From assembly GCA_944383195.1 (NCBI GenBank), contig CALWOP010000177.1:58390-122389 (forward strand): 64,000 nt of DNA. Reading direction: 5' to 3'. Below are positions 14,323-14,637 of this stretch, piece after piece. This DNA comes from an uncultured Oscillospiraceae bacterium. Its GTDB lineage: Bacteria; Bacillota; Clostridia; Oscillospirales; Oscillospiraceae. The notes beneath the pieces were generated by a model. It was given only the letters and a program-made list of their open reading frames with translations. It did not search any database and was not told the origin of the DNA. Each line of letters starts with the position of its first letter. Within the stretch, counting starts at the first letter, position 1. The position numbers and the translations under genes are program-made.

Positions 14323-14637
14323 GGGGCCGTAAAGGTTTCGACGGGGCATTGAAGGATTAAAGTTCACGGGTAAGCATACCGCCTCAAGGAGCAAACAAAA
14401 TTAACTGACAACGCTTATTTCGAGAATCATCTTGCGGCTTGAGCTTTGCTCGTCGCTTAACCCTTGAGTTTCTTTATTTACTCTCTTAAATAAAGTGGTG
14501 GAGGTAAACCAGTACGCTTAACGGAGTGAGGTTGTTAAAGCCTATCCCACTTAATGGATAAAGTTTAACTATCGTGTAAGTAAACTTTAATTATATAGGT
14601 GTTTCGGACGCGGGTTCGACTCCCGCCGGCTCCACCA
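14323..14637 (+). ncRNA. ssrA: tmRNA (ssrA)
   Basis: The 5' end ggggccgtaaaggtttcgacgggg and the 3' end tttcggacgcgggttcgactcccgccggctccacca closely match the tRNA-like domain of E. coli tmRNA. An internal tag reading frame ends ...YFENHLAA-TGA (about 14407-14442). Confidence 0.8.

Follow-up and report, generated by a model that had tools for sequence, protein, structure and literature searches.

A complete one-piece tmRNA gene in the tRNA array of a large TAG-recoded phage

A phage tRNA array encloses a complete tmRNA gene

The sequence analysed here (the window) is a stretch of 64,000 nucleotides of contig CALWOP010000177.1, in which ARAGORN calls an array of 31 plus-strand tRNA genes between 6.8 and 27.9 kb. 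Within this array lies a 315-nt gene for a complete one-piece transfer-messenger RNA (tmRNA, ssrA) at 14323-14637 (+). ARAGORN and the Rfam family RF00023 return the gene at the same coordinates: ARAGORN reads the tag DNAYFENHLAA* from gene positions 85-120 (14407-14442), and the Rfam match reaches 108.3 bits (gathering score 47; E = 2.3e-41) over model positions 1-374 of 374, a call far beyond chance. The termini read from the window, ggggccgtaaaggtttcgacgggg at the 5' end and tttcggacgcgggttcgactcccgccggctccacca at the 3' end, the TGA at 14440-14442, the encoded CCA and the final LAA of the tag are exactly as given in the initial annotation, which had been made from the letters alone and had proposed a phage tmRNA inside a tRNA island, to be checked with these same two programs. 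Both agree with it, the pseudoknot and tag architecture is present alongside the Rfam match, and the phage genes and 31 tRNAs of the window bear out the assignment to a phage tRNA island. Every testable feature of a one-piece tmRNA was found apart from the full set of pseudoknots PK2-PK4, which is reduced, and the full-length gene lies on a viral genome with recoded TAG codons and phage genes on the same strand. The tmRNA gene is genuine and phage-borne, and by its conservation, described below, it looks functional.

The phage nature of the window is evident from its coding content. Its G+C content is 36.8%, nearly all long open reading frames (ORFs) are on the plus strand, and many of them are intact only when TAG is read as sense (for example within 20250-24449, 27939-28841, 39707-40417, 48852-51555 and 59194-60105). 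Four in-frame TAG codons fall within the PhoH domain of ORF 48852-50108, and ORF 50035-51555 has four inside its Phage_lysozyme2 domain and two inside its Amidase_2 domain. Others lie in the Mtd_N tail-fibre ORFs 20250-21311 and 24515-24739, in the tail-fibre-like ORFs 21329-22672 and 22695-24449, and inside a GIY-YIG domain. TAG is used as sense in a subset of genes only (tail fibre, lysis, PhoH and some homing endonucleases), many other genes being free of it. ARAGORN also finds an amber suppressor tRNA with anticodon CTA (25732-25805, +), which belongs to the context of the tmRNA and is no part of it; its G73 and mismatched 1:72 pair are as in glutamine tRNAs, features that do not prove glutamine identity. 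Further genes encode DNA gyrase B, RNase H, ThyX, DNA ligase, a set for the salvage of nicotinamide adenine dinucleotide (NAD), an RNA ligase, an AAA_33 kinase and phosphoesterases. Pfam scans of the window ORFs revealed no integrase domain. Since a megablast search with 20 kb of the window (28000-48000) against 50,697 phage records gave no match, the phage has no close relative among the GenBank phage records. The window thus derives from a large phage with recoded TAG (code 15 type), to which nothing closely related has been described.

Syntenic relatives keep the RNA fold and the tag frame

Relatives of the tmRNA were recovered with the exact 24-mer at its 5' end and a second pattern, which returned many viral contigs, and through a search with the protein encoded downstream, which yielded six syntenic relatives (L033-L038). 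The latter are IMG/VR viral contigs of 104-146 kb that carry full-length RF00023 matches of 70.9-120 bits in the identical position, between tRNA-Phe and a CYTH-like gene. ARAGORN detects the tmRNA in only two of the six and misses it in L033-L036; it also misses the tmRNAs of phage phAss-1 and of the contigs L004 and L006, where the frames were taken from the Rfam alignment and the conserved resume position.

Together, the window and its six relatives hold six distinct sequences with five tag alleles, the tag reading DNAYFENHLAA in the window, DNDYFENYLAA in L037 and L038, DEDYFENYLAA in L035 and L036, and DNDYFSSNIAA in L033 and L034. All five alleles of this short class have 11 codons followed by TGA, a GAC resume codon, D1, Y4, F5 and a C-terminal [LI]AA, and they differ among themselves by synonymous changes as well (TTC/TTT, GAG/GAA and GCG/GCA/GCT). 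The kept frame together with these synonymous changes indicates that the tag peptide is translated and under selection.

RNAalifold predicted 79 base pairs for the alignment, 23 of them with compensatory changes. Counting was done on this structure with two pseudoknot stems added (83 pairs, 496 cells, six sequences): standard pairs occupy 97.0% of the cells, and 25 of the 83 pairs have changed on both sides. The covariation score of 0.386 compares with 0.184 in shuffled alignments and was reached by none of 500 shuffles. As a control, sliding the pairing partners by 1-3 columns lowered pairing to 38-47% and left two to six compensatory pairs. The covarying parts are the acceptor stem, helix 2, helix 5, the hairpin at the PK2 position, the 3' hairpin and the T stem. 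The slid control and the many independent compensatory events leave a structured and selected RNA as the only reasonable reading of this locus.

Anatomy of the RNA

All parts described in this section are on the plus strand. The 5' strand of the acceptor stem, GGGGCCG (14323-14329), forms seven pairs with CGGCTCC (14627-14633). All seven are kept across the six distinct alleles, the fifth and sixth with compensatory changes (CG to AU and CG to UA), and G3 pairs with the U at 14631 in every allele, an invariant G3:U70, the alanine identity pair. Helix 2 is made of 14342-14368 and 14573-14606 and comprises 23 pairs in three segments, eight of them changed on both sides, with 96-100% of the cells paired.

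Directly beyond the 5' strand of helix 2, a compact H-type pseudoknot 1 (14369-14392) precedes the GAC resume codon. Its stem 1 joins GGT (14369-71) to GCC (14381-83) and its stem 2 joins GC..CC (14374-80) to GG.GC (14388-92). Both are fully paired in all alleles; stem 2 contains one compensatory pair (CG/UA) and stem 1 shows a one-sided change from U:G to U:A. As stem 1 is mostly invariant, its pairing is proposed rather than proven, and the support for a pseudoknot 1 upstream of the resume codon is moderate; at the same position, longer relatives (described below) have AGGU:GCCU and AG.CC/GG.CU. The A-rich 14-nt linker AAACAAAATTAACT leads from pseudoknot 1 to GAC, which Rfam aligns to the consensus resume codon GCA, and the tag frame called by ARAGORN and placed by the Rfam alignment runs from there through DNAYFENHLAA to TGA (14407-14442).

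The last tag codons and the stop are contained in the helix 5 hairpin (14434-14456), with a 5-bp outer stem in which one pair is GC, AU or UA depending on the allele. A long hairpin follows at the PK2 position (14462-14504), with an outer stem CCTT/GAGG and a 9-bp inner stem that holds two compensatory pairs; 98-100% of its cells are paired. Candidate pairings of its loop with upstream (GAGU:ACUC) or downstream (CUCU:GGAG) sequence were rejected, as the other alleles do not support them. Further on, a 3' pseudoknot (14507-14569) arises where GAGTG (14524-28) pairs with CACTT (14548-52), a loop segment of the hairpin 14534-14569; the hairpin itself has compensatory changes in seven of ten pairs. 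For the loop pairing, the window has AGUG:CACU, L035 has AGCG:CGCU and L033, aligned by eye in a shifted register, has AUGG:CCAU. Downstream of the tag there are thus one hairpin at the PK2 position and one well-supported 3' pseudoknot, compared with three pseudoknots (PK2-PK4) in the full set.

The RNA closes with a T arm, GCGGG-TTCGACT-CCCGC (14610-14626), with one covarying pair in its stem, followed by the acceptor 3' strand CGGCTCC (14627-33), the discriminator A and the encoded CCA. Over its last 45 nt, a stretch that covers the T arm, the acceptor strand and the CCA, the gene shares 89% identity with the ends of enterobacterial ssrA.

Upstream, a structured spacer of 102 nt (14221-14322) separates tRNA-Phe from the tmRNA. 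It folds into a 10-bp stem (14259-14315) with an inner hairpin, has a minimum free energy of -31.3 kcal/mol (z = -3.9 against shuffles) and contains the T-loop-like motif GAGTTCGATTC. The spacer is probably part of the precursor transcript, and it may represent the degenerate remains of a tRNA or serve as a signal for processing.

The phage tmRNA is of Clostridia type and the window lacks a detectable SmpB gene

The 5' 24-mer of the tmRNA occurs exactly in 116 species genomes. Among the titles listed, all are Clostridia and most are Oscillospirales (Oscillospiraceae, Ruminococcaceae, Anaerotruncus, Ruminiclostridium, Oscillibacter and Dysosmobacter, with a few Eubacterium, Lachnospiraceae and Emergencia), a pattern with which the host proposed for phAss-1 (PMC10607447) agrees. 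From these matches, 80 bacterial loci were fetched, in which ARAGORN called 72 tmRNAs of 343-395 nt, apart from one call of 639 nt. The bacterial tmRNAs are at most 75% identical to the window gene and all are longer. Their tags include ANNNKLAVAA, ADNRSELAAA, DNNNLAFAA and DNNTVAMAA, none of the 72 has the phage tag, and nine of them share the Asp (GAC) resume codon.

Clostridia SsrA (for example that of Anaerotruncus massiliensis, 350 nt, tag DNNNLAFAA) begins with the same 24 nt as the phage gene and shares with it the tRNA-like domain, helix 2, pseudoknot 1, a short tag ending in AA and a hairpin at the stop codon. The phage gene differs from it in being shorter than all 71 normally sized calls (315 nt as against 343-395 nt), in having a tag of its own, and in lying in a tRNA array instead of beside smpB, which ssrA adjoins in 51 of the 80 fetched bacterial loci.

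We searched for a phage SmpB. Pfam found none in 86 of the 87 predicted plus-strand ORFs of the window, and the one ORF outside these scans (55020-57377, gyrase A-like by eye) was covered by a six-frame search. In the latter, a profile hidden Markov model built from 52 Oscillospirales SmpB sequences was run with TAG as sense and gave no hit, the best window match having E = 6. Searching the window and phAss-1 by tblastn with the same number of Oscillospirales SmpB sequences was equally negative. With Anaerotruncus SmpB as the query, tblastn matched 68 of 50,697 phage records; a tally by organism covers every one of these matches, and phAss-1 is not among them. As neither the window nor phAss-1 revealed an SmpB, the phage RNA most likely uses the host's SmpB, alanyl-tRNA synthetase (AlaRS) and EF-Tu. 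The phage lineage is predicted to infect Clostridia of Oscillospirales type.

A sister class of longer tmRNAs in other recoded phages

Alongside these genes there is a sister class of tmRNAs of 404-440 nt, found in phAss-1 (OQ749652, code 15 clade) and about 25 IMG/VR contigs (its members being L001, which is phAss-1, L002, L003, L005, L006 and L008-L032). In phAss-1 the gene lies at L001:6000-6439, corresponding to 92139-92577 on the minus strand of OQ749652, with an Rfam score of 77.9 bits, and this interval is without any annotated feature in the phAss-1 record. Read from the conserved resume position, the tags of the long class have 21-24 residues, for example DDTVVMIHPAFAAFVANRVAA and DNSNVIVMVHPALISAMMEVRQAA, and its alleles show many synonymous changes at third positions. 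The tag AVEDTPEKQFSL that ARAGORN proposes for L002, L003 and L005 does not fit the conserved frame and was rejected.

The two classes hardly differ at their 5' and 3' ends and have in common the GTGGTGGAGG motif, the pseudoknot 1 region and a resume codon of D/N type, and the long class too is found within tRNA arrays, on viral contigs of 70-140 kb. It differs from the window tmRNA in being about 100 nt longer and in its tag of 21-24 instead of 11 residues. Compared with the phage records, long-class tmRNAs matched only through their 3' 45 nt, to enterobacterial ssrA ends. Across 23 distinct alleles (22 from the phage family and that of L004, which is of uncertain origin), the tag stop is TGA or TAA and never TAG, which is what a TAG-reassigning phage would need.

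On L004, a 30.8-kb IMG/VR contig, an RT-2 RNA (RF03077, 153 bits; L004:8909-9173) and a tmRNA of bacterial appearance (tag NNNTVAIAA, 141 bits; L004:13117-13464) are separated by about 4 kb. This site may be a prophage border or a bacterial fragment and not a phage tmRNA.

tmRNA alleles are mosaic beside homing endonucleases

Comparison of the syntenic loci revealed that the tmRNA and its surroundings differ in their similarity to the window. In L033 and L034, identity to the window amounts to 98-100% over the two upstream tRNAs and to 99-100% over the spacer, yet to only 76% over the tmRNA. The opposite holds for L037 and L038, with 93-94% identity in the tmRNA and 62-65% in the spacer; taken over L035, L037 and L038, spacer identity is 62-68%. 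A LAGLIDADG endonuclease gene (L033:3489-3970, and likewise in L034) adjoins the tmRNA on its 3' side, whereas in the other pair of relatives it is a GIY-YIG endonuclease gene (L035:2830-3608, and likewise in L036) that adjoins the tmRNA, on its 5' side. The window has the endonuclease-free arrangement. This mosaic of tmRNA alleles suggests cassette exchange by homing.

Genes for homing endonucleases (GIY-YIG with NUMOD domains, and HNH) are spread over other parts of the window, both inside the tRNA island and outside it, at 7922-8647, 11155-11841, 25810-26799, 37211-38398 and 59194-60105, and several have many in-frame TAG codons (10, 11 and 16).

The downstream CYTH-like gene and other features of the window

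The gene that follows the tmRNA (14658-15113, +) starts with ATG and encodes a protein of 151 residues. It aligns over its full length to PDB 2fbl/3typ (E = 8e-6), the entry for NE1496, which we take to be a CYTH-type triphosphatase of Nitrosomonas, and its N-terminus reads MMEIERKW; ExExK is the CYTH signature. Pfam gave no CYTH match for this ORF at E <= 1. The initial annotation had placed a CYTH-domain gene at 14658: the start is correct, and the label, resting on the PDB match only, is reasonable, although the domain is not recognised by Pfam. The closest CYTH-like relatives (79-97% identity) all lie just downstream of a tmRNA, in six of six syntenic relatives. More distant homologues (38-41% identity; L039-L041) are found among tRNA genes in two of three viral contigs, one of which is 240 kb long. 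These surroundings give hints of a role for the protein in RNA metabolism.

Within the array, Rfam calls a tRNA of about 116-120 nt at 17083-17198, which is missing from the ARAGORN calls. Each of the six relatives conserves it (L033:6897-7016, L034:6274-6393, L035:6267-6383, L036:6275-6391, L037:6271-6387 and L038:6894-7012), and it may be a tRNA with an intron or long insert. Between tRNA-Gln(ttg) and tRNA-Gln(ctg), two relatives carry a ROOL RNA (RF03087, 350 bits; L033:6035-6630 and L038:6032-6627); in the window these two tRNA genes are only 60 nt apart (16496-16557) and no ROOL match was found there.

Genes for an RNA ligase, an AAA_33 protein (polynucleotide kinase-like) and several metallophosphoesterases lie at 38364-39647, 46082-46600, 46597-47151, 34785-35597 and 45324-46025. 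As a set they look like an RNA or tRNA repair kit, which would fit a phage that faces RNA-cutting defences. An NAD salvage cluster (40498-45087) encodes an isochorismatase-type nicotinamidase, a nicotinamide/nicotinate phosphoribosyltransferase, an NAD synthase, a protein resembling phosphoribosyl pyrophosphate synthetase, YqeY and a membrane protein, and may counter NAD-depleting defence systems. At 30786-33215, a protein of 809 residues combines the shoulder and repeat domains of the major vault protein with an SPFH-like region; in the phage collection it matches only three huge-phage records (LR756500, LR756501 and LR756503) at 39-46% identity.

Discussion

tmRNAs also occur in cluster C mycobacteriophages. 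Phage tmRNAs as such are already documented: huge phages are reported to carry tmRNAs and SmpB (PMC7162821), and a survey of 18,146 phage genomes counted 402 with tmRNA genes (133 unique), among which is the gene of phage Melnitz, a two-piece form controlled by a riboswitch (PMC9004378). What is new here is the presence of the gene in a recoded lineage where it has gone unnoticed. The literature searchable here contained no paper linking tmRNA with TAG-recoded (code 15) phages, and neither the Borges et al. preprint nor the phAss-1 paper (PMC10607447) mentions tmRNA. The window gene resembles the reported phage tmRNAs in being a complete gene that accompanies many tRNAs in a phage of lytic type, and the roles proposed for those, to keep hijacked ribosomes running or to degrade tagged proteins (PMC7162821, PMC9004378), are like those considered here. 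It differs from the huge phages in that no SmpB was found in the window or in phAss-1, and from Melnitz, whose tmRNA is two-piece, permuted and under a riboswitch, in being one-piece. Since the standard tool misses or mis-calls most of the relatives and the phAss-1 annotation lacks the gene, phage tmRNAs are probably under-counted.

We consider it probable that the locus encodes a functional phage-borne one-piece tmRNA of Clostridia (Oscillospirales) type, trimmed to 315 nt and provided with a tag of its own, that acts in ordinary trans-translation. On the molecular level, the RNA would be transcribed with the plus-strand tRNA array and released from it through cleavage by RNase P of the host and trimming at the 3' end; its gene encodes the CCA, like 29 of the 30 tRNA genes checked. 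Host AlaRS would charge it with alanine through G3:U70, and host SmpB and EF-Tu would deliver it to ribosomes whose A site is empty on a broken mRNA or one without a stop codon. Translation would resume at GAC, 14 nt past pseudoknot 1, append (A)DNAYFENHLAA and end at UGA, which the phage does not reassign. The C-terminal LAA would then pass the product to host ClpXP-type proteases and the ribosome would be recycled. For the phage, the benefit would be additional rescue capacity when non-stop complexes surge during infection, be it from decay of host mRNA, from RNA-cutting defences or toxins, or from read-through of TAG once the amber suppressor tRNA is expressed. That the RNA frees ribosomes which nucleases or toxins have stalled, as the initial annotation had envisaged, is plausible and fits the RNA ligase, kinase and phosphoesterase genes, which hint that the phage meets RNA damage.

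Several points weigh against this interpretation. The pairs were counted in the same alignment from which the structure was partly derived, and six sequences make a small sample. In pseudoknot 1, stem 1 is nearly invariant and hence beyond the reach of a covariation test. The L033/L034 allele has an unusual T loop, UGCGACU, and some alleles of this kind may be impaired. No promoter-like site was found in a scan of the plus strand near the tmRNA gene. The negative result for SmpB covers the window, 64 kb of a genome of probably 105-146 kb, and phAss-1, the carrier of the other tmRNA class. The selective reason for which a phage would carry a tmRNA is something that we can only infer. Finally, the phage RNA has fewer pseudoknots than its bacterial homologues, a reduction that does not exclude it from the tmRNAs because PK2-PK4 are dispensable in E. 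coli.

The alternative that survives best, which we nonetheless regard as unlikely, is that the phage tmRNA competes with that of the host so that rescued proteins receive a phage tag with a different fate, such as faster turnover that recycles amino acids, delivery to another protease or adaptor, or evasion of a host system by which trans-translation is monitored. The absence of the phage tag from the 72 bacterial tmRNAs called in the fetched loci would be in keeping with such tag swapping, as would the fact that within each class the phage tags are kept as peptides while their codons change synonymously, and the long-class tags, which are very unlike the host tags seen. All phage tags, however, end in a canonical [LIVQ]AA, for which ordinary proteolysis is the simplest account, and Pfam scans of the window found no phage protease or adaptor gene. 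That the phage tag differs from that of its true host is moreover not established.

A captured host ssrA that brings the phage no benefit and is moved about as a cassette, serving as a landing pad for homing endonucleases, is a good deal less probable than that. The mosaic alleles and the LAGLIDADG or GIY-YIG genes that adjoin the tmRNA in L033-L036 would be expected of such a passenger. Compensatory changes in nearly every helix and a tag frame kept across 24% nucleotide divergence are, however, signs of selection on the RNA and the peptide and not of drift. Homing endonucleases typically target conserved, functionally important genes, and their presence at this locus thus argues for a function of the tmRNA.

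The initial annotation had also suggested that, with TAG read-through dependent on a suppressor, the tmRNA could tag and destroy proteins cut short, here at in-frame TAG codons whenever suppression fails. The late genes with in-frame TAGs, the tRNA(CTA) and the reported action of tmRNA at unassigned UAG codons (PMC6207430) speak for it. The same report limits this action to a codon that is unassigned and a ribosome that is stalled (PMC6207430). In a standard-code host, release factor 1 (RF1) reads UAG and releases the peptide, which is then no longer on the ribosome, whereas tmRNA requires a stalled ribosome with an empty A site. The suggestion would need RF1 to be inactivated during infection, and Pfam scans of the window found no gene for this; we regard it as highly improbable.

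That the gene is no phage gene at all, being part of a bacterial chromosome or an ssrA 3' fragment at the attachment site of an integrating phage, is scarcely tenable: many phage records do match only the last 45 nt, at ssrA ends on prophage borders (as in CP-1639, SopEPhi and Klebsiella prophages, with 89% identity), but those are fragments or bordering host genes, whereas the window gene is entire, 5' half, tag and pseudoknots included, and its surroundings show tail and lysis genes, recoded TAG and 31 tRNAs but, in Pfam scans, no integrase domain. Its relatives lie on viral contigs of 104-146 kb, and no SmpB was found in the window, whereas bacterial ssrA of this clade commonly adjoins smpB. 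An attachment-site fragment, bacterial contamination and a pseudogene were accordingly rejected on the full-length gene, the phage context, the covariation and the kept tag frame.

A functional phage tmRNA engaged in ordinary trans-translation leaves the known mechanism of tmRNA unchanged; the link to recoding, the unusual tags and the exchange of cassettes are leads to follow and not yet results. The mosaic of the tmRNA beside homing endonucleases would provide a clear-cut case of an RNA gene exchanged as a cassette. Dependence on host SmpB would tie the phage to its host, to which the tmRNA sequence gives a clue. With regard to recoding, we infer that amber suppression would drive ribosomes past TAG-terminated messages to their 3' ends and thereby raise the demand for rescue. 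It is conceivable, if on balance doubtful, that the tmRNA belongs to a code-switching toolkit in which a tmRNA of the phage's own, terminated by UGA or UAA and working with an SmpB that the phage does not encode, clears from 3' ends the ribosomes that have read through the many host and early messages ending in TAG, and marks the products for disposal with tags of two classes. The tags would offer a searchable signature of phage-driven trans-translation in gut metaproteomes, as peptides ending in ...ADNAYFENHLAA and also in ADNDYFENYLAA, ADEDYFENYLAA and ADNDYFSSNIAA. If the toolkit proposal is true, ribosome rescue would be a required companion of stop-codon reassignment, which would explain why the gene is retained across this lineage of code-15 gut phages.

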